This document shows positions 8,755 to 32,462 of a DNA stretch of 64,000 nt, piece after piece; positions within the stretch are counted from its first letter, which is position 1, and the number at the start of each line of letters is the position of its first letter. Origin of the DNA: Escherichia coli (lineage in GTDB: Bacteria; Pseudomonadota; Gammaproteobacteria; Enterobacterales; Enterobacteriaceae); NCBI RefSeq assembly GCF_009931435.1, contig NZ_CP043414.1. One strand, given 5' to 3'. The translations under genes were made by a program, and so were the position numbers. A model generated the notes under the pieces. It did not search any database, was not told the origin of the DNA, and saw only the letters and a list, made by a program, of their open reading frames with translations.

Positions 8755-10067
<1,313 letters not shown>

Positions 10068-10108
10068 CCTGTACTCCATATGACAACCGCCCTGACGGGC
10101 GGTTGAAT

Positions 10109-10885
10109 TTATTCTTCAGTTTTTTCGCTTTCTGCTTCAGCGTCGTTTTCCTCTTCCCGGTTTCGACCCTTACCAACGTAAAAGCGTGAGAAGAAGACAC
10201 CGATTTCAAACAGGCAGTACATCGGGATCGCCAGCAGCGTTTGCGAGAAGACATCCGGCGGCGTCAGCAGCATCCCGACAACAAATGCGCCAACCAGCAC
10301 ATACGGACGTTTTTTGCGTAAGTCTTCTGGCGAGGTAATTCCCATCCAGCACAGCAGCACAATTGCCACCGGCACTTCAAAGGAGACACCAAACGCCATA
10401 AACAGCGCCATAACGAAGCTTAAATAGCTGGCGATGTCGGTGGATACCTGTACCCCTTCCGGCGCGGTATTGGCAAGGAAGCCAAATGCCAGCGGAAAGA
10501 CCACAAAGTAGGCGAACGCCATGCCGATATAAAACAACAGAGAGCTGGAAACCAGCAGCGGCACCACCAGACGACGTTCATGCTTATACAGCGCTGGGGC
10601 GATAAACGCCCACACCTGATAGAGAATCACCGGCGCTGACAGAATCAGCGACACCATAAAGGTCAGCTTGATCGGCGTAAAGAACGGTGAGGCCACGTCG
10701 GTGGCGATCATCGTTGAACCTTGCGGCAACTGCTTGATCAATGGCGCGGATACCAGGTGATAGATGTCATTGGCGAAATAGACCAGACACAGGAATATCA
10801 CGATCACCGCGATAATGCAGTTCAGCAGACGCTTACGCAGCTCAATCAGATGCGTGATAAGCGGTTGAGTATCTTCTACAGACAT
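10109..10885 (-). CDS. tatC: Twin-arginine translocase subunit TatC
   Basis: 258-aa [30 protein letters not shown]...; polytopic membrane protein; matches TatC. Confidence 0.95.
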
Positions 10886-10887
10886 GT

Positions 10888-11403
10888 TTACGGTTTATCA
10901 CTCGACGAAGGGGAAGGTGCAGCGGTTTTCGGTTCAGCGTCCGCAGCAGGTTTTACCACCGGCTCTGGCGTGGTTTCTGGCTTCTGTTCCGGCGAACTGG
11001 CCTGCGTTTGTGCAGCGGCAGGCGTTACGCCTTCATGCGCAGCTTCATTATCTTTCACCACCGGATTATGGATGGTGTGCGCTTCATCGCTCGCCTTTTC
11101 AGGATCGTTTGCAACGTAGGAACGCTTCATCGACTCCGCGGCCTGGCGTAGTTCATCCATCGACGCTTTCAGTTCGGGCGTCAGGTTAGTGAGGCTCGCC
11201 TTTTCAACCTTTTTCAGGCTGTCCTGAAACTCCTGGAGTTTTAACTCCTGGGTCAGTTCGTTCTGCACCGTTGTCGCCAGTGAACGCAACGCGCGAATCC
11301 AGCCCGCTACCGTTTTTACCGCCACAGGCAGTCGTTGCGGCCCCAGAACGACGAGGCCGATGATGAACACCAATAGCAGTTCGCTAAAACCGATATCAAA
11401 CAC
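10888..11403 (-). CDS. tatB: Twin-arginine translocase subunit TatB
   Basis: 171-aa [43 protein letters not shown]...; matches TatB. Confidence 0.95.
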
Positions 11404-11406
11404 GGA

Positions 11407-11676
11407 TTACACCTGCTCTTTATCGTGGCGCTTCGCGTCTTCTGTTTTAGCCTGTTCCTGATTCGTATCCGCCTGCTTATCGGCGATAGTTTTCGCAGTA
11501 AAATCAGCATCCTGACTGGTTTTATCCTGCTTTGGTTCATCATCGCTCATTGCTTTTTTAAAGCCTTTGATCGACGCACCAAGATCGGAACCGATGGAGC
11601 CGAGCTTTTTGGTGCCAAAAAGCAGTACAACGATGACGGCAATAATCAATAACTGCCAAATACTGATACCACCCAT
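11407..11676 (-). CDS. tatA: Twin-arginine translocase subunit TatA
   Basis: Track ORF 11407..11718 trimmed to [33 protein letters not shown]... (89 aa). Confidence 0.92.
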
Positions 11677-11754
11677 ACATGTTCCTCTGTGGTAGATGAT
11701 GATTAAACAAGGCCGCATTATACGTTACACGGCCCGCCTTGAGCGATGAAAAAA

Positions 11755-13997
<2,243 letters not shown>

Positions 13998-14010
13998 TTC
14001 CGGTCTCCTG

Positions 14011-14766
14011 TCAGAACTTATAACCACGATGCAGCGCCACAACCCCTGCCGTCAGGTTGTAATAGTCGACACTTTCGAATCCAGCATCCTGCATCATAGC
14101 TTTCAGGGTGTCCTGATCGGGATGCATGCGGATAGATTCAGCAAGATAACGGTAGCTGTCAGCGTCGTTCGCGACCAGTGAGCCAATACGCGGCAGCACA
14201 TGGAAGGAGTAAGCGTCATAGGCCTTACTTAACGGCTCGATAATCGGCTTCGAGAACTCAAGCACCAGCAGTCGGCCGCCAGGTTTCAGAACGCGATACA
14301 TTGAACGCAGAGCTTTATCTTTGTCAGTGACGTTACGCAGACCAAACGAAATGGTGATGCAATCAAAGGTGTTATCCGGGAACGGCAGCGCCTCAGCGTT
14401 CGCCTGAACATACTCAACGTTGCCAATCACACCAATATTACGCAGCTTCTCGCGGCCCATTTTGAGCATGGATTCATTGATATCAGCAAGGACCACTTTG
14501 CCAGTTTCACCCACCAGGCGGGAGAATTTCGCTGTCAGGTCGCCAGTACCGCCTGCCAGATCCAGCACGGTCTGCCCGCGGCGTACGCCACTGCAATCAA
14601 TCGTGAAGCGTTTCCACAAACGATGTATGCCAAAAGACATCAAATCATTCATGACATCGTATTTCGATGCCACGGAATGGAAAACGTGGGCGACCATATC
14701 CGCTTTTTGTTCCTTCGCGACGGTCTGAAAACCAAAGTGCGTCGTTTCTTGTGACTTATCCACCAT
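14011..14766 (-). CDS. ubiE: Ubiquinone/menaquinone C-methyltransferase UbiE
   Basis: 251-aa [49 protein letters not shown]...; SAM-binding LDLAGGTGD motif. Confidence 0.95.
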
Positions 14767-14860
14767 CTCAATGCCTGCTCATCAAAAAATTGTTCCAGAA
14801 GTGTAACAGATTGGGCGTCGATGCCCTAGATTTCTACCCGGCTTAACTACCCCCAATGGG

Positions 14861-16288
14861 CTAGCGCGACTGCTGATTATATTCATCATCGCGTTGATAA
14901 GCTTCATCATTCGGCTGCTCCGGTACCGACCGCAGTCGATACTCTTCATCCTGGCTCACCGCTTGTTCAGCCAAATCCGGATTAATCTCGCGTTTAATTT
15001 CTACTCCTAAACCGCGAAACGCTTCTGCTTGCGCCAGCACATTTCCGCGACCTGAAGAGAGTTTTTTCATTGCCTGACGATAGTTGTCCTGTGCTTTGTC
15101 CAGACTTTGACCAATCGCGGACATATCATCGACAAACAAGCGCATTTTGTCGTACAACTTGCTGGCACGATCGGCTATTTTCTGAGCGTTGCGGCTTTGA
15201 TGCTCATAGCGCCAGAGGTTGGCGATAGTGCGCAGCGCCACCAGCAGCGTGGTCGGGCTAACCAGCATGATATTGTTTTTCAACGCTTCGGTGATCAGCT
15301 CCGGCTGGCGGTCAAGCGCCAGTAAAAAAGCGGGTTCAACGGGAATAAACATCAGCACGTAATCCAGGGTTCGCAGCCCCGGCAGCTGTTGATAATCTTT
15401 GCGTCCCAGCAAACGGATATGGTTACGCACCGACGCGATATGTTCCTGTAGCGCGCTTTCGCGGGTGTAGTCGTCTTCTGCGTTGAAATAGCGTTCATAG
15501 GCGACCAGTGTCATTTTTGCGTCGATCACCACATCTTTTCCCTGCGGCAACCGCACGATGACATCCGGCTGCATCCGCGAGCGGGCGTCATTTTCGATGC
15601 TGACCTGGGTTTCATATTCATACCCTTCACGCAGACCGGAAGCCTCCAGCACACGCGTCAATACTACCTCGCCCCAGTTGCCCTGGGTTTTATTGTCGCC
15701 TTTCAGCGCACGCGTCAGGTTGATCGCTTCCTGGGCCATTTGCGCGTTGAGCTGCTGGAGATTGCGTATTTCGTGAGTCAGGGTATGGCGTTCTTGTGCT
15801 TCTTTACCGAAACTGTCCTGAACCTGACGACGAAAACCGTCCAGTTGTTCACGTAGTGGCGACAACAGGCTGTTCAGACTCTGACGGTTTTGCTCATCAA
15901 CCCGGCGATTGCTGTGCTCGAAAATACGGTTGGCGAGGTTTTCAAACTGCTCACTGAGGCGCTGTTCGCTGTTGATCATTTGGCGAATTTTATCGTCAGC
16001 ATGTTGCTGTACGGCCTCCATTCGCGTGGTGACTTCACGCAGATCCGCCTCCAGCGAGGTGTTAATGCTTTGCAGACTGCGCACTTCATTATTGAGTAAC
16101 TCGCACTCAGCACGCCAATGTTCGCTTTGGGTAATTTGTTGTTTTGCCGCACTTAACTCCGCGACCATCTCTTCACGTTCAGCGAATTGCTCGGCTTTTT
16201 GCTGCGCATGCTGATAACTGGCAATCAGCCAGCCAATCGCCACGCTCACCAACGCAATAACTGCGTAAACCATGATTGAGATATCCAC
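14861..16288 (-). CDS. rmuC: DNA recombination protein RmuC
   Basis: Track ORF 14861..16381 trimmed to an in-frame GTG (encoding VDISIMVYAVIAL...) preceded by GGAGG; about 475 aa as remembered for RmuC. Confidence 0.88.
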   Translation of the reverse strand: MDISIMVYAVIALVSVAIGWLIASYQHAQQKAEQFAEREEMVAELSAAKQQITQSEHWRAECELLNNEVRSLQSINTSLEADLREVTTRMEAVQQHADDKIRQMINSEQRLSEQFENLANRIFEHSNRRVDEQNRQSLNSLLSPLREQLDGFRRQVQDSFGKEAQERHTLTHEIRNLQQLNAQMAQEAINLTRALKGDNKTQGNWGEVVLTRVLEASGLREGYEYETQVSIENDARSRMQPDVIVRLPQGKDVVIDAKMTLVAYERYFNAEDDYTRESALQEHIASVRNHIRLLGRKDYQQLPGLRTLDYVLMFIPVEPAFLLALDRQPELITEALKNNIMLVSPTTLLVALRTIANLWRYEHQSRNAQKIADRASKLYDKMRLFVDDMSAIGQSLDKAQDNYRQAMKKLSSGRGNVLAQAEAFRGLGVEIKREINPDLAEQAVSQDEEYRLRSVPEQPNDEAYQRDDEYNQQSR

Positions 16289-16404
16289 AACGCCTCCAGC
16301 CTCATTACTTACCCGCACAAAATAGAATTGTGCTGTACAAACGTCCAGTTTGAAAGAAGTTTCCTGCGAGGCGCTACGCAAAACGATCCTTAATTTTTAT
16401 TATT

Positions 16405-16444
16405 TTATCCCACAATATGAGACCTAGTTTATATTGTGGGATAA
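16405..16444. promoter_or_regulatory. Perfect 14-bp inverted repeat (TTATCCCACAATAT-N12-ATATTGTGGGATAA), candidate operator for the adjacent IclR-family regulator
   Basis: Read directly in the rmuC / IclR-gene divergent intergenic region, about 60 bp upstream of the regulator ATG. Confidence 0.5.
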
Positions 16445-16503
16445 ATCACCTTTTCCCCACGTCATTATGTGGAACACTTCAGCAATATCATCAGGAGAAA
16501 CGT

Positions 16504-17271
16504 ATGGCAGATACCTCTTCAACCACCGCTGGCGCACAAACGTTATTACGCGGGCTCGCGGTTCTTAATGCTGTTTATAACGGCTGCCATGACCTGAAAA
16601 GTATCGGCGAGTTCACCGGCACGACCCGGAGCACAACCCATCGTTTAGTCACCGTTCTGGTGGAACAACGCTACCTGCGCCACGTCCCAACGCAGGGCTA
16701 CCAACTGGGCGCCAAACTGATCGAATTCGGTGCCAGAGCGCTGGAAAGCACCTCGCTGTACGAAGTTGCGCTGCCCGTTTTGCAACGCCTTGCCCGTTAC
16801 ACCCTGGACACCGTGCATCTGGGGATCGTTGAAGGCGACGAAGTGCTGTATCTGGAGAAGATCAACAGCCAGCGCGGGCTGGAAATGCGCTCACGCCCAG
16901 GCCATCGCATGCCACTGGCAATCACCGGCATCGGCAAGGCATTGATCCTCAACCGAACAGAAGAAGAGTGGCGCACGCTGTTTAAGACCTGTGGTGATGA
17001 AACAAAACTGGGCGCATTTATTCAGAACATGCGTCGTTATGCCGCGAGTGGTTTTGCTTTTGATCTGGAAGAGAACGAGCCGACTATCCGTTGCGTTGCA
17101 GCGCCGGTTTACAACGCCCGGGATGAAATTGTGGCGGCTATTTCTGTCGCCAGTACCACTACGTATATGTCACTGGCGCGTCTGGAAGAACTGGCACCTT
17201 ACGTCAAATCCTGTGCAGAAGAGATATCCGCTGAACTGGGCTGGGGTAAGCACGTCCGCAAAAATAAATAA
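16504..17271 (+). CDS. IclR-family transcriptional regulator
   Basis: Track ORF 16417..17271 trimmed to MADTSSTTAGAQTLLRGLAVLNAV... after an AGGAG RBS; N-terminal HTH plus C-terminal effector domain typical of IclR proteins. Confidence 0.8.
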   Translation: MADTSSTTAGAQTLLRGLAVLNAVYNGCHDLKSIGEFTGTTRSTTHRLVTVLVEQRYLRHVPTQGYQLGAKLIEFGARALESTSLYEVALPVLQRLARYTLDTVHLGIVEGDEVLYLEKINSQRGLEMRSRPGHRMPLAITGIGKALILNRTEEEWRTLFKTCGDETKLGAFIQNMRRYAASGFAFDLEENEPTIRCVAAPVYNARDEIVAAISVASTTTYMSLARLEELAPYVKSCAEEISAELGWGKHVRKNK

Positions 17272-17294
17272 ACCATGACTAAAGGAAACGGCTA

Positions 17295-18299
17295 ATGTCG
17301 GGAAACACCTCATTTATTGCCCTGGACTGGGGAACGTCATCGCTTCGGGCATGGCGTTTTGGCGATTCACCAAATCCACAAGAAAAACGTGAATTCCCGT
17401 GGGGGATCATGAAATTACCCTCCCAGGCAGCAACACGTGAGGACGCTTTCCACGATACGTTTTTACGTGTCTGCGGCGACTGGCTGGCACAATCCCCATG
17501 CCCGGTTCTGGCTTGCGGCATGATCGGCAGTGCGCAAGGGTGGCAACCCGCAGCTTATTTACCTTGCCCGGTCACTCTCGAGGGTCTGGCAAAGCAGTTG
17601 ACGCCTGTTATCCACCAGCAGCAGACAATGCTGCATATTATTCCTGGCGTGATTAAAGAAGGTGAAATGCCCGAAGTAATGCGTGGTGAAGAGACACAAA
17701 TCTTCGGTGCTATCTCGATGGAACCGGCCCTGCAAAACGCGATCCGCCAGGGTATGCCTGTGCTGATTGGCTTACCTGGCACACATGCGAAATGGGCGGT
17801 AGTTGAAAACAACACCATTACCGATTTCCGAACCTTTATGACTGGCGAGTTATTTGATGTTTTATCCCGCCATTCGATTCTCGGTGCCACCATGCGTTCG
17901 GGAGATGAACCGCACTGGGATGCCTTCACCCATGGGCTGACAGCAGCACAAGAGCATCATCAGACCGGATTATTATCGACGCTGTTTTCGACCCGTTCGC
18001 GCCTGCTGACCAGTAATCTTACGCCGTCCTCACAGGGGGATTACCTTTCAGGATTACTGATAGGCCATGAATTATGCGGTCTGGCATCCAGTTTGCTACG
18101 TGATTTACCCGCCACAACACCGATCGCCTTAATCGGTAGCGCCACTCTGAACAGCCGCTATTCACAAGCATTCAGCCACGTTTTTCCCGACAGACAGCTA
18201 CACGCCATTCCTAATGCCACTGAACAGGGGTTATGGCGAATCGCCCACGTTGCCGGGCTACTCTCCACCAACGCCAGGGAATGTACCCATGCCATTTAA
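17295..18299 (+). CDS. 2-dehydro-3-deoxygalactonokinase-like sugar-acid kinase (DgoK family)
   Basis: 334-aa ORF MSGNTSFIALDWGTSSLRAWRF...; N-terminal DWGT(S/T) motif and overall resemblance to DgoK. Confidence 0.7.
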   Translation: MSGNTSFIALDWGTSSLRAWRFGDSPNPQEKREFPWGIMKLPSQAATREDAFHDTFLRVCGDWLAQSPCPVLACGMIGSAQGWQPAAYLPCPVTLEGLAKQLTPVIHQQQTMLHIIPGVIKEGEMPEVMRGEETQIFGAISMEPALQNAIRQGMPVLIGLPGTHAKWAVVENNTITDFRTFMTGELFDVLSRHSILGATMRSGDEPHWDAFTHGLTAAQEHHQTGLLSTLFSTRSRLLTSNLTPSSQGDYLSGLLIGHELCGLASSLLRDLPATTPIALIGSATLNSRYSQAFSHVFPDRQLHAIPNATEQGLWRIAHVAGLLSTNARECTHAI

Positions 18300-18918
18300 T
18301 ACGCTTTTGCAAAAAACCGGGTTAGTCGCCATTTTACGCGGCGTGAAACCGGATGAGATTGTCGCCATCGGTGAAAAGCTGTATGCCGCTGGATTTCGCC
18401 TGATTGAGATTCCCATGAACTCGCCGGAGCCGTTGCAAAGTATCAGTTTACTGCGCGACGCCCTGCCTAAGGACTGCCTGGTCGGAGCCGGAACGGTGCT
18501 TTCGGTGGAGCAAGTCGTCGCGGTTAAAGAGGCTGGAGGCCAGATTATCGTGATGCCGCATTGCGATACTGCGGTGATCCGTCGTGCCCGTGCGCTGGGT
18601 ATGTATTGTGCGCCTGGCGTCGCTACGCCCACCGAAGCTTTTGCTGCCATTGAACATGGCGCCAATGCCATCAAGCTGTTCCCGGCTGAACAAATTACGC
18701 CTGAAGTCACCAAAGCCTGGCGTGCGGTTATTCCACAATCCGTTCCGATGTTACCGGTTGGCGGTATCACTCCAGACACAATGGCGCGTTATCTGAGCCA
18801 CGGCGCAAACGGCTTTGGCCTCGGTTCTGCGCTATATCGCCCCGGCATGACGCCAGAGCAAGTCTATGAAAATGCAGTACTGTTTATGAACGCATGGAAC
18901 AATTTAAATAGCAAATAA
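18289..18918 (+). CDS. KDPG / KDPGal aldolase-family protein (DgoA/Eda-like)
   Basis: Track ORF 18214..18918 trimmed to MPFNTLLQKTGLVAILRGVKPDEIVAIGEKLYAAGF...; overlaps the kinase stop by 11 nt. Confidence 0.7.
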   Translation: MPFNTLLQKTGLVAILRGVKPDEIVAIGEKLYAAGFRLIEIPMNSPEPLQSISLLRDALPKDCLVGAGTVLSVEQVVAVKEAGGQIIVMPHCDTAVIRRARALGMYCAPGVATPTEAFAAIEHGANAIKLFPAEQITPEVTKAWRAVIPQSVPMLPVGGITPDTMARYLSHGANGFGLGSALYRPGMTPEQVYENAVLFMNAWNNLNSK

Positions 18919-18942
18919 CTGATAAATAAGGATATAAAAGCA

Positions 18943-19917
18943 ATGATAAAACATCTTACCTTACCGAAAAAAATGGCTGCAATGGTACTTCTTGCCGGCG
19001 CTGCCCTCAGCACTGCGCCTGTACAGGCGGCCTCCTGGCCAACCAAACAAATCGAGTTAGTCGTACCCTACGCGGCCGGAGGCGGTACGGACCTGGTTGC
19101 CCGAGCCTTTGCTGATGCCGCCAAAAACCATTTACCCGTCAGCATCGGGGTTATCAATAAACCTGGCGGTGGCGGCGCTATCGGCCTGAGTGAAATCGCC
19201 GCTGCCCGCCCTAACGGTTACAAAATGGGTTTAGGCACGGTTGAACTGACCACCCTTCCCAGCCTCGGAATGGTGCGTTTTAAAACCAGCGACTTTAAAC
19301 CCATTGCCCGTCTGAATGCGGATCCGGCGGCTATCACCGTCCGTGCCGATGCGCCGTGGAATAGCTATGAAGAATTTATGACTTACGCCAAAGCGAATCC
19401 CGGAAAAGTACGCATTGGTAACTCAGGCACCGGAGCAATCTGGCATCTGGCGGCAGCTGCACTGGAAGACAAAACGGGCGTGAAGTTTTCTCATGTCCCG
19501 TATGACGGCGCAGCCCCTGCCATTACAGGCCTGTTAGGCGGGCATATTGAAGCGGTTTCCGTAAGCCCAGGTGAAGTTATCAATCATGTGAAAGGCGGCA
19601 AGCTGAAGACACTGGTAGTGATGGCGGATGAACGTATGAAAACCATGCCTGACGTCCCGACGTTAAAAGAGAAAGGCGTTGATCTCTCCATCGGCACCTG
19701 GCGCGGCCTGATTGTGTCGCAAAAAACGCCGCAGGATGTGGTGGATGTGCTGGCAAAGGCAGCAAAAGAGACGGCTGAAGAGCCTGCATTCCAGGATGCA
19801 CTGCAAAAGTTGAATCTCAACTATGCATGGCTTGATGGTGCCAGCTTCCAGACCCAAATCAACGAGCAGGAAAAGTACTTTGACGAGCTTCTGACTCGCC
19901 TGGGCCTGAAAAAATAA
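18943..19917 (+). CDS. Tripartite tricarboxylate transporter periplasmic substrate-binding protein (TctC/Bug family)
   Basis: 324-aa ORF with signal peptide MIKHLTLPKKMAAMVLLAGAALSTAPVQAA; TctC-like sequence. Confidence 0.75.
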   Translation: MIKHLTLPKKMAAMVLLAGAALSTAPVQAASWPTKQIELVVPYAAGGGTDLVARAFADAAKNHLPVSIGVINKPGGGGAIGLSEIAAARPNGYKMGLGTVELTTLPSLGMVRFKTSDFKPIARLNADPAAITVRADAPWNSYEEFMTYAKANPGKVRIGNSGTGAIWHLAAAALEDKTGVKFSHVPYDGAAPAITGLLGGHIEAVSVSPGEVINHVKGGKLKTLVVMADERMKTMPDVPTLKEKGVDLSIGTWRGLIVSQKTPQDVVDVLAKAAKETAEEPAFQDALQKLNLNYAWLDGASFQTQINEQEKYFDELLTRLGLKK

Positions 19918-19933
19918 TCCCGAGGTACGGTCG

Positions 19934-20440
19934 ATGAACACAAAACAGTCTGTTGCTCAACTCGCCGTACCGCACCGCAAGCGCCTTTCATCCACTGTGG
20001 TGGTGGCGCTGTTACTTTGTGTGGTTGCTGGCGCGGTGATAATTAATGCCGCTGATTTTCCAGCAACTGCCATTGAAACGGATCCCGGTGCAAGTGCCTT
20101 CCCTACTTTCTATGCCTGCGCTCTGATTGTGCTCGCTGTCTTACTGGTGATACGCGATCTTTTGCTGGCAAAACCAGTCCCTTGCGCCAACGCACAGGAA
20201 AAACCGGCATTAAGGAAAACGGCAACAGGAATTGCGGCAACCGCGTTTTATATTGTGGCGATGAGCTACTGCGGTTATCTCGTTACTACTCCTGTTTTCC
20301 TCATCGTCATTATGACGTTGATGGGCTACAGGCGATGGGTACTCACTCCGGGTATTGCGCTGCTGTTAACGGCAATCCTCTGGTTGCTGTTTGTCGAAGC
20401 GTTACAGGTGCCATTGCCTGTCGGCACATTTTTCGAATAA
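19934..20440 (+). CDS. Tripartite tricarboxylate transporter small membrane subunit (TctB family)
   Basis: 168-aa hydrophobic ORF between the TctC- and TctA-like genes. Confidence 0.65.
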   Translation: MNTKQSVAQLAVPHRKRLSSTVVVALLLCVVAGAVIINAADFPATAIETDPGASAFPTFYACALIVLAVLLVIRDLLLAKPVPCANAQEKPALRKTATGIAATAFYIVAMSYCGYLVTTPVFLIVIMTLMGYRRWVLTPGIALLLTAILWLLFVEALQVPLPVGTFFE

Positions 20441-20452
20441 CAGGGGCCTGCA

Positions 20453-21943
20453 ATGTTTGAAAGTGAACTTTTAACTCAGGGGTTTTCGACATTACTCAGT
20501 AATCCTCAGGCGCTGCTGTTTGCCACGTTTGGAGTGATGCTGGGTATTATGATTGGCGCTCTGCCTGGCCTGACAGCGACCATGGGTGTGGCGATTTTGC
20601 TGCCTTTCACCTACGGCATGGAGCCTGTTTCTGGCTTGTTGATGATTTGCGGTGTCTTTTTTGGTGGTGTGTATGGTGGTTCTATCACCGCAATTTTGCT
20701 CAAAATTCCCGGTACACCTGCCGCCGCTGCCACCGCCATTGACGGTTATGAGTTAACGAAGCAGGGAAAAGCCGGGCTGGCATTAAGTGCCGCCACGTTC
20801 TCTTCTTTTAGCGGTGGAACGCTCAGCATTATCGTATTGATGTTTCTCTCTCCGGTCCTTGCTAGTTGGGCGTTGAAATTTAGTGCCTCGGAGTCCTTCG
20901 CCCTGGCAACCTTCGGACTGAGCATTATTGCCAGTATTTCCGGTGAGTCGCTGATTAAAGGGCTGATCGCCGGGATTGGCGGATTAATGATCGCAACGAT
21001 AGGCCTCGATCCGATGGGCGGTTTTCCACGCTTTACGGGCGGGTTTGTGGAACTGATGAATGTGCCATTTATCCCGGTGATGATTGGTCTGTTTGCTGCT
21101 TCAGAAGCGTTCCGTTCTATGGAACAAAATCAGCATATTCGTCAGAGCGCGAACGTGGCTATCGGCAGTCTGTTACTGCCCTGGCAAACGCTACGCCGCA
21201 TCGCATTAACCATTTTGCGCTCATCAGGATTAGGGGTTTTTATCGGCATGATCCCCGGTGCGGGGGCAGATATTGCAGCTTTTGTTGCCTATAACGAAAC
21301 TCGTCGTTTCAGTAAGACGCCTGAAAACTTTGGTAAGGGTGAGATTAAGGCGGTGGCCTCCTGTGAGGCAGGCGCGAATGGCTGCACCGGTGGCGCATTG
21401 TTACCTATGCTGACGTTGGGGATCCCAGGCGATGCGGTAACTGCCATCATGCTGGGCGCGTTAACGTTACAAGGGATGCAGCCAGGCCCACTGATGTTTA
21501 CCGACCACGGCGATATGGTTTATACGTTATTTGTCGGCATGATCTTCTGTTACTTCATGCTGCTAGTTCTTGGACTGCTCTCTTTGAAAGTCATCGGTAA
21601 CGTGGTGAAAATTCCCGGCAATATTCTCACACCGATGATCCTCGCACTTTGTGTGGTCGGGACTTATGCGTTGAACAATAGCCTGTTTGATGTTGGCATT
21701 ATGCTGATTGCAGGCGTGGTGGGCTATTTCATGCAAAAAGGGGGATATCCGGCATCACCCGTAGTGCTGGCATTGATTATGGGGCCAATGGCGGAAAGTA
21801 ATTTTCGCCGTGCGCTGTCGCTTTCAGGGGGGTCACTCGACTTCCTGTATACCCGACCGATAACCCTGGCATTGCTGACACTGGCAGCCTTTACGCTACT
21901 GACGCCAATAATACGCAAAATTATGCGCTTACGGCGTCAGTAA
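20453..21943 (+). CDS. Tripartite tricarboxylate transporter large permease (TctA family)
   Basis: 496-aa polytopic membrane ORF MFESELLTQGFSTLLSNPQALLFATFGVMLGIMIGALPGLTATMG...; TctA-like. Confidence 0.75.
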   Translation: MFESELLTQGFSTLLSNPQALLFATFGVMLGIMIGALPGLTATMGVAILLPFTYGMEPVSGLLMICGVFFGGVYGGSITAILLKIPGTPAAAATAIDGYELTKQGKAGLALSAATFSSFSGGTLSIIVLMFLSPVLASWALKFSASESFALATFGLSIIASISGESLIKGLIAGIGGLMIATIGLDPMGGFPRFTGGFVELMNVPFIPVMIGLFAASEAFRSMEQNQHIRQSANVAIGSLLLPWQTLRRIALTILRSSGLGVFIGMIPGAGADIAAFVAYNETRRFSKTPENFGKGEIKAVASCEAGANGCTGGALLPMLTLGIPGDAVTAIMLGALTLQGMQPGPLMFTDHGDMVYTLFVGMIFCYFMLLVLGLLSLKVIGNVVKIPGNILTPMILALCVVGTYALNNSLFDVGIMLIAGVVGYFMQKGGYPASPVVLALIMGPMAESNFRRALSLSGGSLDFLYTRPITLALLTLAAFTLLTPIIRKIMRLRRQ

Positions 21944-21997
21944 TTGATATCGCTCCCCGACGTTGGGGAGTATGAGACTGATGACAAACGCTAAATT

Positions 21998-22100
21998 GCC
22001 TGATGCGCTGCGCTTATCAGGCCTACCACAGAAATGCAATATATTGAATTTGCATGCTTTTGTAGGCCGGATAAGGCGATCACGCCGCATCCGGTATGAA
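21998..22100. repeat. REP element cluster
   Basis: GCCTGATGCGCTGCGCTTATCAGGCCTAC and TGTAGGCCGGATAAGGCG...CCGCATCCGG motifs downstream of the TctA-like gene. Confidence 0.7.
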
Positions 22101-22128
22101 CAAAGGACACGTTAACAACAATCGGAAT

Positions 22129-22157
22129 GCTCCCCTAAGCCAGGGAGCGTTTTTTAT
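22129..22157. terminator. Bidirectional rho-independent terminator between the TctA-like gene and udp
   Basis: Hairpin GCTCCCCTAAGCCAGGGAGC followed by TTTTTTATTT on the + strand; overlaps the udp stop. Confidence 0.65.
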
Positions 22158-22918
22158 TTCAGCAGACGACGCGCCGCTTCCACCACGATTTTCACCGCCT
22201 GGCTTTCGGTTTGTTTCATCGTCTCAGCATTCGGGATCTCTTGCTGGGTACGATTGACGATAACGCCCGCCACCATACCCGCACGCAGGCCCTGGCTTGC
22301 ACACATGGTCAGCAGGGTTGCAGATTCCATTTCATAGTTCATTACGCCCATCGCCTGCCACTCTTCCATAGAACCTTTAAAGTGACGGACTACACGACCA
22401 GAGTAAGTATCGTAACGTTCCTGACCCGGGTAGAAGGTATCAGAAGAAGCCGTCACACCAACGTGAGTGGTGGCACCAATTGACTTCGCCGCTTCAACCA
22501 GCGCGGTCGTACATTCGAAATCTGCGACAGCCGGGAACTCCAGCGGAGCGAAGTGCAGGCTCGCGCCATCCAGACGAACAGACGCCGTGGTCACCAGCAC
22601 ATCGCCGACATTGATATGCGGCTGGATAGCGCCCGTTGTACCGATACGCAGGAAGGTGCGAATGCCCAGCTGTGCCAGCTCTTCAACCGCAATAGAGGTA
22701 GACGGGCCGCCGATACCGGTAGAGCAGACGATAACAGGTTTACCATCCAGCTCTGCACGCCAGGTGGTGAATTCGCGGTGAGATGCCAGCTTAACCGGCT
22801 TATCCATCAGCGCGGCGATCTTTTCCACACGATCCGGGTCGCCAGGGACGATGGCAAGCGTAGCCCCTTGTAAATCGTTTTTAGTGAGGCCGAGATGAAA
22901 AACATCAGACTTGGACAT
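22154..22918 (-). CDS. udp: Uridine phosphorylase Udp
   Basis: Track ORF 22154..22924 trimmed to [31 protein letters not shown]... with AGGAG RBS. Confidence 0.93.
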
Positions 22919-24084: not shown

Positions 24085-24245
24085 GCCACTCTTTGACTCC
24101 CTTCACATTCGTCATCACACCACCTGTTGAATGCAAAAATTTCGTTGCTGTGCGGCAAACTTTTTTCCTGTTTTATGCCGCTTTTCTCCTGAATACTCGC
24201 TCTCAGAACAACTGGATCGTTTAAACATCAGACAGGAGATTTACC

Positions 24246-24914
24246 ATGACGCAATCCATTTTTCAGGCTCAACCCTTTGAATTACCTTTTGATCCGCGCA
24301 CAACTGCACTGGTCATGATCGACATGCAGCGTGACTTTGTCGAAGCAGGGGGCTTCGGTGAGGCACTGGGCAATGATGTTTCACTGGTACGCACGGCTAT
24401 CGCACCATGTACAGAGGTGCTGGCAGCCGCACGTCAAAAAGGAATTATGGTTATTCATACTCGTGAAGGCCATCGTGCAGACTTAAGCGACTGCCCGCCA
24501 GCCAAACTGACGCGCGGCGGAAAAACCTTTATTGGTGAACCAGGACCGATGGGACGCATTCTGGTCAGAGGTGAAGCGGGTCATGACATCATTCCTGAAC
24601 TGTACCCAGTGACAGGCGAACCGGTGATTGATAAGCCCGGTAAAGGCGCTTTTTATCAAACCGACTTACATCTGATTTTGCAAAACCACGGTATCAAGAC
24701 GCTGATAGTTTGTGGTGTAACAACCGAAGTTTGCGTAACCACCACCGTGCGCGAAGCAAATGACCGTGGCTATGAATGCATTATCCCGGAAGATTGTGTC
24801 GGCTCATATTTCCCGGAATTCCAGAAATATGCCCTCGAGATGATCAAAGCACAAGGTGCCATTTTCGGTTGGGTGAGTGATTCCAAAGCCATTATTGCAG
24901 GTCTGGAAGGCTAA
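24246..24914 (+). CDS. Isochorismatase-family cysteine hydrolase (RutB / N-carbamoylsarcosine amidase-like)
   Basis: 222-aa ORF; family motifs ALVMIDMQRDF (Asp), conserved Lys and LIVCGVTTEVCV (catalytic Cys); GGAG RBS. Confidence 0.75.
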   Translation: MTQSIFQAQPFELPFDPRTTALVMIDMQRDFVEAGGFGEALGNDVSLVRTAIAPCTEVLAAARQKGIMVIHTREGHRADLSDCPPAKLTRGGKTFIGEPGPMGRILVRGEAGHDIIPELYPVTGEPVIDKPGKGAFYQTDLHLILQNHGIKTLIVCGVTTEVCVTTTVREANDRGYECIIPEDCVGSYFPEFQKYALEMIKAQGAIFGWVSDSKAIIAGLEG

Positions 24915-24919
24915 CGCCG

Positions 24920-25780
24920 ATGGTACAGGTGACGCTTTGCGCATCATCGTTGGGATATCTTTTCCCGCAAAATGAAACGCAAGATTTACGTCTGCATAGT
25001 GCTTTTAAACATGCGGTAAATCTGTATTCAGAAGCGGGAACATTCATCACTCTGTTGTGTGCGCAAACGTATCTGAATCTCCCTGATGCCGCCAGAGTCA
25101 ACCTGCCTGAGAATTGGGACTGGCGAAGAGAGATTGCCCATTCAGATCCCATTCAGTTAACCCCAGGCTTGTTACAAACACCTCGCTTTTGCGTGGTGCT
25201 TCATAACACAACACTTTGGCAACCGCCATTTGTGGGGGGAATGCTGACACTTGAGGCATTCCCTTTGGTTTTCCAGCACTACCCAACGATGGCATCGCAA
25301 CGGCTTTTATTTTGTCTGGAGCATAACGTTCAAAGCACATTGCACCTGCCGGATAGTCTCACGCACCAGGGATTAGCGATTATGGAACATCCAGATGCAC
25401 TGGAACGCCAGGTGCCACAACTGATCGGCTTTGGTAAAGGCTTAACGCCCGATGGAGATGACTATTTGTTGGGCTATCTGGCAGCGCTCTGGTTATGGCA
25501 ACTCCCTGCAACACTTGCCGATCATCAATACCGGTTGCAGCAGGCAATTGATCAACATGCGCACAACACCACGGATATCAGTCGTCATTATCTGGAGCGT
25601 GCGCTTCAGGGGCATTTTTCAGAACCGATTTGCCAGTTACTCGCACAACTGGTTGGGGGCGCATCGGAAATGACAATCGCATCCTGTGCAGAACAGGTCA
25701 TGCAATTTGGCGCAACGTCAGGAGTAGATTGCCTTGCAGGAATGCTGCATGGCTTTCGAACCCTGAACACCATGAATTGA
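24920..25780 (+). CDS. DUF2877-family protein (YlbF/YahE-like)
   Basis: 286-aa ORF starting 6 bp after the hydrolase stop; resemblance to YlbF/YahE proteins that accompany FdrA-like genes. Confidence 0.55.
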   Translation: MVQVTLCASSLGYLFPQNETQDLRLHSAFKHAVNLYSEAGTFITLLCAQTYLNLPDAARVNLPENWDWRREIAHSDPIQLTPGLLQTPRFCVVLHNTTLWQPPFVGGMLTLEAFPLVFQHYPTMASQRLLFCLEHNVQSTLHLPDSLTHQGLAIMEHPDALERQVPQLIGFGKGLTPDGDDYLLGYLAALWLWQLPATLADHQYRLQQAIDQHAHNTTDISRHYLERALQGHFSEPICQLLAQLVGGASEMTIASCAEQVMQFGATSGVDCLAGMLHGFRTLNTMN

Positions 25781-25874
25781 TTTCAACCTTTTCTCCCGTA
25801 GCCCATTTATGGCGCTACACGGGGATGCTTTGCCCGAATTTTGCTATCGGGCGGAATAAAACAGGCGTAACAGC

Positions 25875-27434
25875 ATGAAAGTTAAATATAAAGTTTTCAG
25901 CAATCTTTATCAGGACTCGGTTTCTCTGATGCAGATTTCCGCGCAAATCAGTAAGTTGCCCGGTATTCAACAGGCCTCGGTCGTCATGGGAACACCCAAT
26001 AATCTCGAACAATTGCGCGATGCGGGTCTGGGTAACGAAATCAACGCCAGTCCCAATGATTTAGTGATTGCAGTCATGGGTGAAGAAGATATTTGCAATG
26101 AAGCACTGATACTGGCCCAGCAACGTCTGACCAGCAAACCCGATGATGAAACGGATAGTGGCATTAAAACACCGGAAAATGTCAGCCTGGAAATGGCACT
26201 GGAAGCCGACACCGAAGCCAACCTGGCACTCATTTCTGTACCGGGAGACTACGCCGCCGCCGAAGCAATTAAAGCGTTAAACCTCGGAATGAACGTGATG
26301 ATGTTCAGCGATAACGTCAGTATCGGGCAGGAAAAATCCATCAAAACACTTGCCCGAGAACGTCAGCGCATCGTAATGGGACCTGATTGTGGAACCGCCA
26401 TTGTTAACGGCATTCCGTTAGGCTTCGCTAATGTGGTGAAACGCGGAGCAATTGGTGTTATTGGCGCGTCAGGCACCGGGCTACAGGAAGTGACTTGCCG
26501 AATCGACCAGCTCGGAGCGGGTATTTCTCAGGCGTTGGGAACAGGCGGGCATGATCTCAGTGAAGAGATTGGTGGAATATCGATGCTCTTCGCTTTAGAT
26601 GCGCTGGCGCAAGACGATGAAACTCGCGTGATTGTGCTTATTTCAAAACCGCCTTCACCGATCGTTGCCCGGGCTATTCTGGAGCGCGCCGAGGCTTGTG
26701 GAAAACCCGTGGTGGTGAATTTCCTCGGTGCGAATCCGCATGATCTGGCACGTCCCAATATCACCGCTGCCGCCACACTTGCCAGCGCCGCAAATATCGC
26801 CGTGGCAGTACTGAATGATCAGCCACTTCCGACTGTCGAGACCGAGATTTCCTGCGACGATCTCACAATGTTACAAAACGCCTGCCAGCGTCTGCCAGCC
26901 CATCGCCAGGCGATACGCGGTGTTTTCGCCGGAGGAACCTTCTGTTACGAAGCGCAACTTATCTGCCAGCAAAAGGGATTCAGCGCCGCCTCCAATACGC
27001 CAGTTGCGGGTAATCGTACTCTGGCAAATATCTGGCAAAGCAAAGGTCACACGCTGATCGATATGGGCGACGATGATTTCACCCGTGGCAAACCGCATCC
27101 AATGATCGACCCGACTCTGCGCAATCAACGTCTGCTCAACGAACTCAACGACTCACACACTGCCGTCGTGTTATTCGACCTGGTACTTGGTTATGGCGCT
27201 TCCGCTACGCCTGCCAGCGAATTACTGGACCAACTTTCACACATCGACATGAATAACGCACCGTTGCTGATTGCGCACGTTTGCGGAACGGAAGCTGATC
27301 CGCAAATACGCAGTCAGCAGATAAGCGCACTACAAAATGCGGGCATCATCATTGCCAGCAGCAATGCACAGGCGGCGCTATGGGCCAGCGCCGTTGCGCA
27401 GACTCAGTTGCAGAAAAAGGGGCTAAACGCATGA
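25875..27434 (+). CDS. FdrA-family protein (CoA-ligase-like; FdrA/YahF paralogue)
   Basis: 519-aa ORF MKVKYKVFSNLYQDSVSLMQISAQ...; conserved blocks NVMMFSDNV, MGPDCGT, GVIGASGTGLQE and GKPHPMIDPTLRNQ match remembered FdrA. Confidence 0.75.
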   Translation: MKVKYKVFSNLYQDSVSLMQISAQISKLPGIQQASVVMGTPNNLEQLRDAGLGNEINASPNDLVIAVMGEEDICNEALILAQQRLTSKPDDETDSGIKTPENVSLEMALEADTEANLALISVPGDYAAAEAIKALNLGMNVMMFSDNVSIGQEKSIKTLARERQRIVMGPDCGTAIVNGIPLGFANVVKRGAIGVIGASGTGLQEVTCRIDQLGAGISQALGTGGHDLSEEIGGISMLFALDALAQDDETRVIVLISKPPSPIVARAILERAEACGKPVVVNFLGANPHDLARPNITAAATLASAANIAVAVLNDQPLPTVETEISCDDLTMLQNACQRLPAHRQAIRGVFAGGTFCYEAQLICQQKGFSAASNTPVAGNRTLANIWQSKGHTLIDMGDDDFTRGKPHPMIDPTLRNQRLLNELNDSHTAVVLFDLVLGYGASATPASELLDQLSHIDMNNAPLLIAHVCGTEADPQIRSQQISALQNAGIIIASSNAQAALWASAVAQTQLQKKGLNA

Positions 27435-28855
27435 ATACCTTATTTAATCAGCCTTTGAAGGTCGTGAACGCGGGACTACACAGTTTTGCTGACAATATTC
27501 AACATGCCGGGGGAAGCGCAATTGCACTCAACTGGCAGCCACCAGCACAAGGCGATATTGACGCTGGATTGGATCTGGCATCGTTGCTACGTCATCCACT
27601 AGTAGAAAATGCCAATCAAATCGCCATGACACGTTATCTCGAAGCACAACCCGTGCTGGTGGATGTCATGCTCGCTAAAGAGGCCATTCCAGCAATGGCT
27701 GAACAAAAACGTATTTTGCACTCTGGTCCGCCGATTGCCTGGGAAGAGATGTGTGGTCCGGTAAAAGGGGCGATTATTGGTGCCATGCTGTACGAAGGTT
27801 GGGCCACCAGCCAGCAAGACGCTGAAAACCAGATAAACACAGGCGAAATCGACCTTGCCCCTTGTCATCATTATCACGCGGTTGGACCAATGGCAGGCAT
27901 CATCAGCCCGTCGATGCCGTTATGGGTGGTAGAAAACAAAACCAACGGCCACCGTACTTTTAGCAATTTCAATGAAGGTCTGGGTAAGGTTCTCCGTTTT
28001 GGTGCCAATAACGATGAAGTTCTCAATCGTCTGGCCTGGATGCGCGATGAACTGGCACCGGCAATGAAAGCAGCAATCGCACAACACGGCGAGCTGGAAC
28101 TCAAGCCATTAATGGCGCAGGCGCTGCATATGGGGGATGAAGTTCATAACCGCAATGCTGCCGCTACCGGTTTGCTGATTAAGCGCCTGCTCCCGGCATT
28201 GCTGGCCTGCTCTATTCCACAGGAACATATCCAGCGCGTCGTGGCATTTATCACCAGTAACGATCACTTCTTCCTCAATCTGTCGATGGCTGCCTGTAAA
28301 GCGATGATGGATGCCGCCGCCAATGTACCGTTCAGTTCAATGGTTACGGTGATGGCGCGTAACGGGGTGAATTTTGGTATTCGGCTTTCCGGTACTGGCG
28401 ATCGCTGGTTCCAGGCTCCTGCCAATGCAGTTGAAGGTCTGTTCTTCCCCGGATTTGGCGTCGACGATGCCGCTGCTGACCTGGGTGATAGCGCAATTAC
28501 CGAAACCGCAGGTGTGGGTGGCTTCGCGATGGCGTCATCTCCAGCGATCGTCAAATTTGTGGGAGGCACCCCTGCCGATGCCACCAATAACAGCCGTAGG
28601 ATGCAAGCAATCACCCTCGGTGGTAACCCCGCATTTACACTTCCTGCCCTCAATTTTGCCCCCACCGCAGCAGGGATTGATGCGCGTAAAGTGACCGATC
28701 GCGGCATTTTACCGGTCATCAATACGGGTATCGCCCACAAACAAGCGGGGGTCGGGCAAATTGGTGCCGGGATCACCACTGCGCCGATGGCCTGTTTTGT
28801 CGCCGCTGTACGTGCACTGTCTGAGATCGTCGCAAAGGAGAACCATCATGGTTAA
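27431..28855 (+). CDS. DUF1116-family protein (YlbE/YahG-like)
   Basis: Track ORF 27380..28855 trimmed to MNTLFNQPLKVVNAGLHSFADNIQ...; ATGA overlap with the FdrA-like stop. Confidence 0.65.
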   Translation: MNTLFNQPLKVVNAGLHSFADNIQHAGGSAIALNWQPPAQGDIDAGLDLASLLRHPLVENANQIAMTRYLEAQPVLVDVMLAKEAIPAMAEQKRILHSGPPIAWEEMCGPVKGAIIGAMLYEGWATSQQDAENQINTGEIDLAPCHHYHAVGPMAGIISPSMPLWVVENKTNGHRTFSNFNEGLGKVLRFGANNDEVLNRLAWMRDELAPAMKAAIAQHGELELKPLMAQALHMGDEVHNRNAAATGLLIKRLLPALLACSIPQEHIQRVVAFITSNDHFFLNLSMAACKAMMDAAANVPFSSMVTVMARNGVNFGIRLSGTGDRWFQAPANAVEGLFFPGFGVDDAAADLGDSAITETAGVGGFAMASSPAIVKFVGGTPADATNNSRRMQAITLGGNPAFTLPALNFAPTAAGIDARKVTDRGILPVINTGIAHKQAGVGQIGAGITTAPMACFVAAVRALSEIVAKENHHG

Positions 28856-29804
28856 GCCACTGGCTGTTGTCGCAGTTGGCGGCAATGCGCTCATTCAGGA
28901 CGAGCAACGCAATAGTATTCCCGATCAATATGTTGCAGTGATGGAAAGCGTGCAGCATATCGTTGATATGGTTGAAGCCGGATGGGACCTGGTGCTTACC
29001 CACGGTAATGGCCCGCAGGTGGGCTTTATTCTGCGCCGCTCTGAACTCGCCAGTAACGAAGTTTCTCCGGTTCCACTTGATTACGCCGTGGGTGATACAC
29101 AAGGTGCAATTGGCTACATGTTCCAGAAAGCGCTGCATAACGAATTGGCTCGCCGTGGCATAAACAAACCGGTAATTGCGCTGGTGACACAAACGCGAGT
29201 CTGCCCACATGACGATGCTTTCACCAGCCCCAGTAAACCGATTGGCGCGTTTCTCGATGAAGCAACGGCCCTACAACGCCAACAGCAACTCGGCTGGACG
29301 CTGATGGAGGACGCCGGGCGTGGTTGGCGGCGTACAGTTCCCTCTCCTGCGCCACTGGAAATTATTGAGCACGACACCATCGCTCACCTGGTGCGCCAGG
29401 GATATCTGGTTATTGCCTGCGGCGGTGGCGGTATTCCGGTGGTGCGAGACGGACAACAACTGAAAGGTGTGGAAGCCGTGATCGATAAAGATCTGGCCTC
29501 CGCGCTGCTCGCCAGTCAGTTAGGCGCAGATCTGCTGGTGATCCCCACCGGTGTAGAAAAAGTGGCGATTAACTTTGGTACACCACAACAACAGTGGCTC
29601 GACGCTATCAGCGTTGCCGAAGCGCAAACGCTGTTACGGGAAGGTCAGTTTGGTGTCGGCAGTATGCAGCCCAAAGTGGAAGCCATTGTTGATTTCATCA
29701 ATGCCAGCCAACAACAAGGCAAACAGGCCAGCGGCCTGATTACTTCACCGCAAACCATAAAAGCAGCCCTTTCGCATCAGAGCGGCACATGGATAACCCT
29801 TTAA
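28848..29804 (+). CDS. Carbamate kinase-family protein (ArcC/YahI-like)
   Basis: Track ORF 28761..29804 trimmed to MVKPLAVVAVGGNALIQDEQ... after AAGGAG RBS; amino-acid-kinase fold signatures (AVGGNAL, THGNGPQVG, VIACGGGGIPV); overlaps upstream gene by 8 nt. Confidence 0.75.
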   Translation: MVKPLAVVAVGGNALIQDEQRNSIPDQYVAVMESVQHIVDMVEAGWDLVLTHGNGPQVGFILRRSELASNEVSPVPLDYAVGDTQGAIGYMFQKALHNELARRGINKPVIALVTQTRVCPHDDAFTSPSKPIGAFLDEATALQRQQQLGWTLMEDAGRGWRRTVPSPAPLEIIEHDTIAHLVRQGYLVIACGGGGIPVVRDGQQLKGVEAVIDKDLASALLASQLGADLLVIPTGVEKVAINFGTPQQQWLDAISVAEAQTLLREGQFGVGSMQPKVEAIVDFINASQQQGKQASGLITSPQTIKAALSHQSGTWITL

Positions 29805-29820
29805 TTCTCTGGAGAACTCA

Positions 29821-30210
29821 ATGACTACAACACTTTTAGCCGTTAACGGAACGCTGATGCGTGGCCTGGAACTCAACCCAAATATGCAAAAAGCGGGCGG
29901 CATTTTTGTCCGTGAAGACCGAACTGACGCCCATTACAGGTTGTGGAGTATTAACGATCGTCATCCGGGAATGATTCGCGTGAATGAAGGAGGAACACAC
30001 GTCGACGTAGAAATTTGGCAATTACCACTGACCAGTTTTGCCGCTCTGTTAATGAGCGAACCCGCTGGGCTGGCAATTGGCAAAATCAAACTTGCCGATG
30101 GTAGCGAAGTGCTGGGCGTACTGGCAGAAAACTGGCTGACCGAAGGCCAACGGGAAATTACAGAACTGGGTAGCTGGCGCAAATACACCGGGCATTTTCA
30201 TACTGTGTAA
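29821..30210 (+). CDS. Small protein, possibly gamma-glutamylcyclotransferase / AIG2-like fold
   Basis: 129-aa ORF MTTTLLAVNGTLMRGLELNPNM...; the N-terminal [YV]G[ST]LM/K motif resembles GGCT-like proteins; weak assignment. Confidence 0.4.
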   Translation: MTTTLLAVNGTLMRGLELNPNMQKAGGIFVREDRTDAHYRLWSINDRHPGMIRVNEGGTHVDVEIWQLPLTSFAALLMSEPAGLAIGKIKLADGSEVLGVLAENWLTEGQREITELGSWRKYTGHFHTV

Positions 30211-30235
30211 CGCGCATTTTTAAAGGGAACATACT

Positions 30236-31459: not shown

Positions 31460-31536
31460 TTCCTGGGTATACTCAGGCAATGATTACGGCTGAATCTGGA
31501 GAGATTCAGCCACTTTACCACTGACCAGGGAGCCTT

Positions 31537-32433: not shown

Positions 32434-32462
32434 AGATCCACATCATACCTGGCATACATAGC

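Follow-up and report, generated by a model that had tools for sequence, protein, structure and literature searches.

A block of six genes lies between rmuC and udp in a stretch of 64,000 nucleotides of Escherichia coli DNA (NCBI RefSeq assembly GCF_009931435.1, contig NZ_CP043414.1), referred to here in its entirety as the window. The genes are tightly packed on the plus strand and encode an IclR-family regulator, a kinase and an aldolase of the kind that act on 2-keto-3-deoxy sugar acids, and the three subunits of a tripartite tricarboxylate transporter (TTT) of the TctCBA type. The block is considered here as a candidate operon for the uptake and breakdown of such an acid. The genes, with product lengths in amino acids (aa), are as follows.

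14861-16288, minus strand: rmuC, divergent from the six-gene block
16504-17271, plus strand: IclR-family transcriptional regulator, 255 aa (NCBIfam IclR-family matches; RefSeq)
17295-18299, plus strand: paralogue of the DGOK-family 2-keto-3-deoxygalactonate kinase, 334 aa (PF05035)
18289-18918, plus strand: paralogue of the DgoA-type 2-keto-3-deoxy-6-phosphogalactonate (KDPGal) aldolase, 209 aa (NF006600)
18943-19917, plus strand: TctC/Bug-family periplasmic substrate-binding protein, 324 aa (PF03401)
19934-20440, plus strand: TctB, small membrane subunit, 168 aa (PF07331)
20453-21943, plus strand: TctA, large permease subunit, 496 aa (PF01970)
22154-22918, minus strand: udp, convergent with the six-gene block

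An initial annotation, made from the sequence alone, had described six co-directional genes with tight spacing that diverge from rmuC. The listing of open reading frames (ORFs) agrees with that description, and the same six coding sequences appear in the RefSeq annotation of strain 2013C-4282, the closest strain. The intergenic gaps are, in gene order, 23, -11, 24, 16 and 12 nt, and the overlap of the kinase and aldolase ORFs is exactly the 11 nt first reported. All six ORFs are intact and are metabolic or regulatory in nature. Alignment with E. coli K-12, in which rmuC and udp are adjacent as the initial annotation stated, delimits the block to 16384-22155 of the window (5772 bp). Homology to K-12 ends at 16383 and picks up again at 22156. 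The K-12 spacer between the two genes measures 140 bp, and in place of the block K-12 has 43 bp with a terminator hairpin. The family assignments proposed in the initial annotation were also upheld by profile searches against Pfam or NCBIfam (DGOK, DgoA-type aldolase, TctC, TctB, TctA and IclR), and neither enzyme fell into an unrelated family.

The kinase covers positions 1-281 of the 281 in the Pfam DGOK model PF05035 (E 1.7e-89), a full-length match. With K-12 DgoK it shares 35% identity and the ASKHA-type motifs DWG(T/S), MRGEETQ, PGTH.KW and FRT.MTGEL, in the forms DWGTS, MRGEETQ, PGTHAKW and FRTFMTGEL. Its nearest solved structures are 3r1x and 3t69, of which 3r1x, a DgoK entry in the PDB, matches with E 3e-36. 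No NCBIfam equivalog model matched the kinase or any of the three transporter subunits, and Pfam was used for these proteins. The aldolase scores 323 bits against the KDPGal aldolase model NF006600, which has a cut-off of 207, and 135 bits against the eda model TIGR01182, under the cut-off of 156; by score it is therefore classed as KDPGal-type and not Eda-type. It is 46% identical to K-12 DgoA, and its best PDB match is 2v81, the E. coli KDPGal aldolase. The Schiff-base lysine and the general-base glutamate are retained, and residues E40, K129 and V157 align with Glu37, Lys126 and Val154 of DgoA. In the literature on 2v81, Val154 is reported to set the stereoselectivity of DgoA for KDPGal rather than for 2-keto-3-deoxy-6-phosphogluconate.

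The three transporter genes are adjacent, in the order C-B-A expected of a TTT system, and the Pfam match of every subunit is significant (TctC, E 2.5e-55; TctB, E 1.9e-20; TctA, E 2.8e-151). TctC has an N-terminal signal peptide, visible in the sequence, that ends VQA/AS. The binding protein is about 60% identical over 295 residues to its nearest solved structure, PDB 4x9t (Polaromonas Bpro_3516), and about 40% identical to Vibrio TTT-C (25hk); no family member with a known ligand comes closer than about 40%. Vibrio TTT-C binds unsaturated alginate oligosaccharides (PMC13390454). Seven of its 11 ligand-contacting residues are kept in TctC, and these include the positions of Gly24, Gly183 and Thr225, which are said to enlarge the pocket (PMC13390454). 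Because these contacts are kept, the pocket residues of TctC are consistent with a ligand of sugar-acid size. Members of the TTT family bind many different carboxylates (PMC11452294, PMC13390454), and the genomic partners of this TctCBA point to a sugar acid rather than a tricarboxylate such as citrate.

The same partners accompany the transporter in distant organisms. Species-representative genomes were scanned with an alignment of binding proteins, which gave 78 loci. The TctC-like protein is 60-67% identical in Rhodoferax, Azospirillum, Brenneria and even Brevibacillus, and orthology of the binding proteins at 50-67% identity was taken from conserved context. Representative arrangements are as follows (SDR, short-chain dehydrogenase/reductase; coordinates are those of the extracted locus).

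Brenneria: IclR-DGOK-aldolase-TctCBA
Azospirillum: the same module as in Brenneria
Klebsiella oxytoca (L005, 4079-13003): the Brenneria arrangement with a divergent Fe-dependent alcohol dehydrogenase, and with a second DGOK and a second IclR downstream
Rhodoferax: the Brenneria arrangement with an SDR upstream and an SMP-30-type lactonase downstream
Photobacterium pectinilyticum (L024, 6993-14935): an SDR and an SMP-30-type lactonase embedded among the regulator, transporter, kinase and aldolase genes; no dehydratase
Spirabiliibacterium (L020, 8438-14569): an SDR embedded in an extended operon; no dehydratase
Brevibacillus: IclR-TctCBA-PfkB kinase-aldolase-2-hydroxyacid dehydrogenase

Some genes overlap in the extended operons of Photobacterium and Spirabiliibacterium, and the extra genes of K. 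oxytoca hint at a further substrate branch. Gene calling in GC-rich loci being heuristic, partners within 8 kb were counted by tblastn in a set of 28 sequences, the window and 27 related loci, chosen for a binding protein with 50% identity or more. An IclR gene is found in 23 of these 28, a DGOK kinase in 19, a PfkB kinase in six and an aldolase of the Eda/DgoA superfamily in 24. A kinase and an aldolase occur together in 23. An SDR resembling glucose-1-dehydrogenase is present in 17 and an SMP-30-type lactonase in eight. In the nine loci whose aldolase was typed, the two enzymes vary together: a DgoA-type aldolase accompanies DGOK in three loci of four (L030, the exception, combines DGOK with an Eda-type enzyme), and all five PfkB loci have an Eda-type aldolase. 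A version with PfkB and Eda-type enzymes occurs in the Firmicutes. This covariation indicates that the transporter feeds the kinase and aldolase step of a keto-deoxy-hexonate pathway. Judged by gene content, the module of IclR, kinase, aldolase and TctCBA recurs over the Alpha-, Beta- and Gammaproteobacteria as a standard architecture. The initial annotation had considered the pairing of such a transporter with Dgo-like enzymes unusual in Escherichia; that view did not survive the comparison. The block had, moreover, already been described as an islet (PMC3349570), and D-galactonate uptake had been predicted for a DgoK-IclR-TTT locus (PMC5507952).

The regulator carries an N-terminal HTH_IclR domain and a C-terminal effector domain, as expected of the IclR family, and its orthologues carry PF09339 and PF01614. 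It aligns end to end with the BhcR, KdgR, PcaR and IclR models of NCBIfam, in each case under the equivalog cut-off. Two features precede its gene.

16384-16503, plus strand: 120-bp segment with the left junction and the regulatory leader, beginning where homology to the region upstream of K-12 rmuC stops
16404-16418 and 16431-16445, no strand: putative IclR operator, a perfect 15-bp inverted repeat TTTATCCCACAATAT-N12-ATATTGTGGGATAAA, found by inverted-repeat search

A third sequence resembling a half-site, ATTATGTGGAAC, lies beside the inverted repeat near 16463-16474, and a ribosome-binding site, AGGAG, is located at 16492-16496, before the ATG of the regulator gene at 16504. This start is taken from RefSeq; a longer ORF from 16417 would read through the operator. 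Within the window, exact copies of the 12-mer core ATCCCACAATAT occur at the operator only. A box resembling TCCCAyaATAtGGGA is found upstream of the orthologous iclR gene in Buttiauxella, Phytobacter, Brenneria, K. oxytoca, Spirabiliibacterium, Photobacterium, Rhodoferax and Azospirillum, and the putative operator palindrome is thus conserved from the Enterobacteriaceae to the Alpha- and Betaproteobacteria.

No dehydratase is encoded in the block, as was first noted, and neither an oxidoreductase nor a lactonase is encoded there. Homologues of DgoD, Edd/IlvD, UxaA and UxuA were detected by tblastn neither in the block nor elsewhere in the window, and on this evidence the block is not a complete operon for D-galactonate (the lower De Ley-Doudoroff pathway). 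The search was extended to 37 sequences, namely 36 related loci of about 20 kb and the whole window. Homologues of DgoD, Edd and UxuA were found in none of them and a UxaA-like gene in two, which leaves 35 of the 37 without a homologue of any of the four families within about 10 kb. No dehydratase family is among the 20 commonest Pfam families listed for 129 neighbouring proteins, although rare ones could lie below that listing. The possibility of a dehydratase hidden in the window or the 36 related loci was considered and rejected, the E. coli DgoD, Edd, UxaA and UxuA queries having returned the two UxaA-like matches and nothing else. The suggestion in the initial annotation that the imported substrate may already be a keto-deoxy acid gains comparative support from these results together with the linkage of kinase and aldolase.

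Among the closest known systems is the E. coli dgoRKADT operon. It shares with the block both enzyme families and a predicted chemistry in which 2-keto-3-deoxy-D-galactonate (KDGal) is converted to KDPGal and then to pyruvate and glyceraldehyde-3-phosphate, and its kinase and aldolase genes likewise overlap. It differs from the block in having the dehydratase DgoD, a permease of the major facilitator superfamily (DgoT) in place of TctCBA, and a GntR-type regulator (DgoR) in place of the IclR-type protein. Of 5426 E. coli genomes, 5008 (92%) carry the canonical operon, which coexists with the block in most block-positive strains; the block therefore represents a second, separately regulated set of kinase and aldolase. 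Such a set makes sense if the inducer of the block is not D-galactonate. DgoR is cited as responding to D-galactonate (PMC10507020, its reference 92), and a cell importing KDGal would therefore not be expected to induce the canonical enzymes, which would explain why the module has a pair of its own.

These features suggest that the block could be a self-contained operon whose products take up a 2-keto-3-deoxy sugar acid of six carbons, KDGal being the likeliest, and then phosphorylate and cleave it, a proposal that appears to us evenly balanced between right and wrong. Import of KDGal is the simplest pathway because the enzymes are galactonate-type and the block encodes no dehydratase, oxidoreductase or lactonase. 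In the proposed mechanism, the TctC-like protein would capture the acid in the periplasm and hand it over to TctB and TctA for import. The DGOK-family kinase would then phosphorylate it at C6, and the DgoA-type aldolase would cleave the phosphorylated product into pyruvate and glyceraldehyde-3-phosphate. The IclR regulator would bind the palindromic boxes at 16404-16445 and presumably be released by the substrate or its phosphate; we infer both the direction of this regulation and the actual expression of the operon.

Several points weigh against this proposal. The literature searched, outside which most subscription journals lie, yielded no ligand-binding, growth or expression data for the system. 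The nearest structure of the binding protein, 4x9t, is ligand-free, and the protein is listed without known ligand or function (PMC11452294). A scan of the plus strand of the leader for the sigma-70 consensus gave no match. The dehydratase search covered four E. coli reference families and a flank of about 10 kb; a dehydratase may be encoded elsewhere in a genome, as DgoD is in E. coli. For a similar locus, D-galactonate has been predicted as the substrate (PMC5507952). Finally, many relatives add the SDR and the lactonase, whose genes are translationally coupled within the Photobacterium operon. In such species, oxidoreduction or the opening of a lactone must therefore act on the imported compound or on a second substrate, and the ligand is not simply KDGal. 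What the proposal chiefly fails to account for is this SDR and lactonase chemistry in operons without a dehydratase.

The principal rival explanation is that the transporter imports D-galactonate as a high-affinity alternative to DgoT, that the core DgoD makes KDGal from it, and that the enzymes of the block add capacity. This would agree with the prediction of D-galactonate uptake for the DgoK-IclR-TTT locus of Salinivirga (PMC5507952) and with the near-constant presence of dgoD in E. coli, and the SDR and lactonase genes of the relatives fit the upstream steps of the De Ley-Doudoroff galactose pathway. Canonical dgo operons include dgoD, however, whereas in several phyla nearly all of the sequences searched (35 of 37) lack a nearby homologue of the four dehydratase families. 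Import of galactonate would also be expected to derepress the canonical kinase and aldolase through DgoR and so to render the copies in the block redundant, yet these appear to be under purifying selection (see below). D-Galactonate is for these reasons a somewhat unlikely substrate.

A second rival explanation is that the ligand is a related acid which oxidoreductases of the host, or accessory ones, convert to KDGal or to 2-keto-3-deoxygluconate (KDG), the E. coli version being a reduced form of a longer pathway. Candidates include a 3-deoxy-hexonate or its lactone, KDG itself, and a 4-deoxy-5-keto-uronate from the breakdown of pectin, alginate or glycosaminoglycans. The position of the SDR and lactonase genes inside the operon in P. 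pectinilyticum and Spirabiliibacterium would be accounted for, as would the genes for KduI, KdgT, Fe-dependent alcohol dehydrogenase and GhrB-like dehydrogenase that adjoin the module in several loci. The Firmicute versions, moreover, pair a KdgK-like PfkB kinase with an Eda-type aldolase, and the nearest characterised binding protein takes unsaturated uronate oligosaccharides (PMC13390454). The module nevertheless occurs without these accessory genes in E. coli, Buttiauxella, Phytobacter, Brenneria and K. oxytoca, and both enzymes of the E. coli block are galactonate-type rather than gluconate-type. For the route from uronates, E. coli already has KdgT, KduI, KduD, KdgK and Eda. A ligand of this kind is accordingly judged unlikely.

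Returning to KDGal as the proposed ligand, the TctC-like protein may define a conserved group of TTT binding proteins specific for 2-keto-3-deoxy-hexonate (KDGal), marked by an invariant NSGTGAIWHLAA motif and extending from the Enterobacteriaceae to the Firmicutes. This assignment is tentative and is put at a little short of an even chance. If it is true, the module is a dehydratase-independent salvage route by which about a quarter of E. coli strains, including B2 and extraintestinal pathogenic lineages as well as BL21, scavenge keto-deoxy sugar acids, which could come from other gut microbes, dietary polysaccharides or sugar breakdown. Confirmation of the ligand would give a function to a strain-variable operon of BL21 and many extraintestinal pathogenic lineages whose function has been given as unknown since 2012. 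The poorly characterised TTT family would gain a new class of substrate, and a nutrient niche, that of free keto-deoxy sugar acids, would be recognised as separating E. coli lineages. The KDGal proposal challenges no established concept.

The block is an already annotated operon of an ordinary kind, a sugar-acid catabolic operon with a TTT importer, and RefSeq names the products of all six genes. It was noted in 2012 in avian pathogenic E. coli O1 as an islet of '6 ORFs with unknown functions' between udp and rmuC (PMC3349570), and its tctA appears in a transcriptome table for enteropathogenic E. coli. In the literature searched, no experimental characterisation of the operon and no demonstration of a TTT system with a KDGal-type ligand were found; the related items are the islet note of 2012, a prediction of 2017 and a Vibrio TTT paper of 2026. 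The 2017 prediction concerns the association of DgoK, an IclR regulator ('GalR') and a TTT in Salinivirga fredricksonii HL-109 (Leyn et al. 2017, PMC5507952). That locus is likened to the block by its combination of regulator, kinase and transporter families, and function is predicted only in both. It differs in the substrate proposed, D-galactonate there, while the recurrent lack of a dehydratase favours a keto-deoxy acid here. The transporter itself resembles the citrate transporter TctCBA of Salmonella and the Bug/TTT family at large (BugD, BugE, AdpC, MatC, TphC and Vibrio TTT-C) in its three components and Pfam families, and TctC keeps the conserved residues of the carboxylate-binding loop. 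Unlike the Salmonella system, the block has no TctDE two-component regulator, and its partners are sugar-acid enzymes and not those of tricarboxylate metabolism.

The distribution of the block within E. coli was surveyed by megablast, with presence defined as a match to at least 80% of the block. It is present in 1452 of 5426 complete genomes (27%), including BL21-AI, and is neither core nor rare, which disposes of the possibility, left open by the initial annotation, that it is conserved core sequence. Two allele classes are seen: about 18 genomes are 97.8-98.7% identical to the window and have repetitive extragenic palindromic (REP) sequences after the last gene, and the majority are about 96% identical and lack them. 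In its core flank the window shares 95-99% identity with virtually every E. coli genome, and the strains nearest to the window in the flank are also the nearest in the block. Between the window and BL21-AI, synonymous divergence (dS) is 0.06-0.23 in the genes of the block and 0.14-0.25 in the flanking ubiB, ubiE, rmuC and udp; dN/dS in the block genes is 0.03-0.29, and these genes are by this measure under purifying selection. In its rmuC and udp the window is 93-95% identical to K-12. Its flanks (9000-16380 and 22154-22918) are at best 99.1% identical to any of the 5426 complete genomes, and the window therefore belongs to a sparsely sampled Escherichia lineage.

Outside E. coli, the six genes occupy the same site between rmuC and udp in Buttiauxella warmboldiae, and in Phytobacter massiliensis the module lies between ubiE and udp (L022, 6549-13801). 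In the latter locus tblastn finds no rmuC, which is seemingly missing or replaced. TctA and TctC are 84-90% identical to their Buttiauxella and Phytobacter counterparts, values similar to those of ubiB, ubiE and udp, which are core genes; for the regulator, TctB and both enzymes the figure is 55-72%.

These comparisons favour an old strain-variable segment of the chromosome that many lineages have lost, or exchanged through homologous recombination, because dS is like that of the flanks, block and flank share their nearest strains, the same site is filled in Buttiauxella and Phytobacter, and there are no repeats, mobility genes or GC shift. Loss from K-12-like lineages fits at least as well as insertion, and the 'inserted island' of the initial annotation was an overstatement. 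The marks of a mobile genomic island are missing: no integrase, transposase or other mobility gene, no direct repeats at the junctions and no tRNA or att site were found at the block, and its GC content (0.48-0.57) is like that of the flanks and host-like. A recently acquired island, or a decaying remnant without current function, would accord with the lack of the block in K-12 and in 73% of the complete E. coli genomes, and a published comparison termed it an 'islet' (PMC3349570). Either is nevertheless very improbable, given the host-like composition and clean junctions, the flank-like dS and shared nearest strains, and the occupied site in the two other genera with TctA and TctC about as similar as core genes. 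A non-functional remnant in particular is unlikely because the six ORFs are intact and dN/dS is low.

The initial annotation had reported REP elements and a terminator after the last gene. Both are there, the former as a REP/BIME pair (BIME, bacterial interspersed mosaic element):

21951-22153, no strand: 3' end region with hairpin, REP/BIME pair and terminator; fold z-score -4.6
21951-21970: small hairpin downstream of tctA
about 21997-22095: REP/BIME pair, matching REP copies elsewhere in K-12
22124-22153: terminator hairpin and T-run, abutting the udp stop codon

Rfam gave only sub-threshold, REP-derived matches in the REP region (naRNA4/ES036). In BL21-AI the gap between tctA and udp is 33 bp and contains one shared terminator hairpin, GCTCCCCgaagttGGGGAGC with a T6 tail, but lacks REP sequence. 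In the window, some 150 bp of REP sequence lie between two diverged copies of this hairpin (21951-21970 and 22128-22147). Because BL21-AI has a single hairpin without REP, the REP/BIME appears to be a secondary insertion into the terminator shared by tctA and udp in the lineage of the window.

A second strain-variable block, absent from K-12, is found at 24100-32450 of the window between ysgA and metE. Its genes encode a cysteine hydrolase resembling biuret amidohydrolase, a DUF2877 protein, FdrA, a DUF1116-like protein, a carbamate kinase, a transporter resembling NCS1 cytosine permeases and a LysR regulator, and together they look like a catabolic cluster for nitrogen heterocycles or ureide-type compounds. 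The same genes are present at this site in BL21-AI, strain 2013C-4282 has a tssD pseudogene there, and avian pathogenic E. coli O1 carries a 16-kb tkt1 island (PMC3349570).

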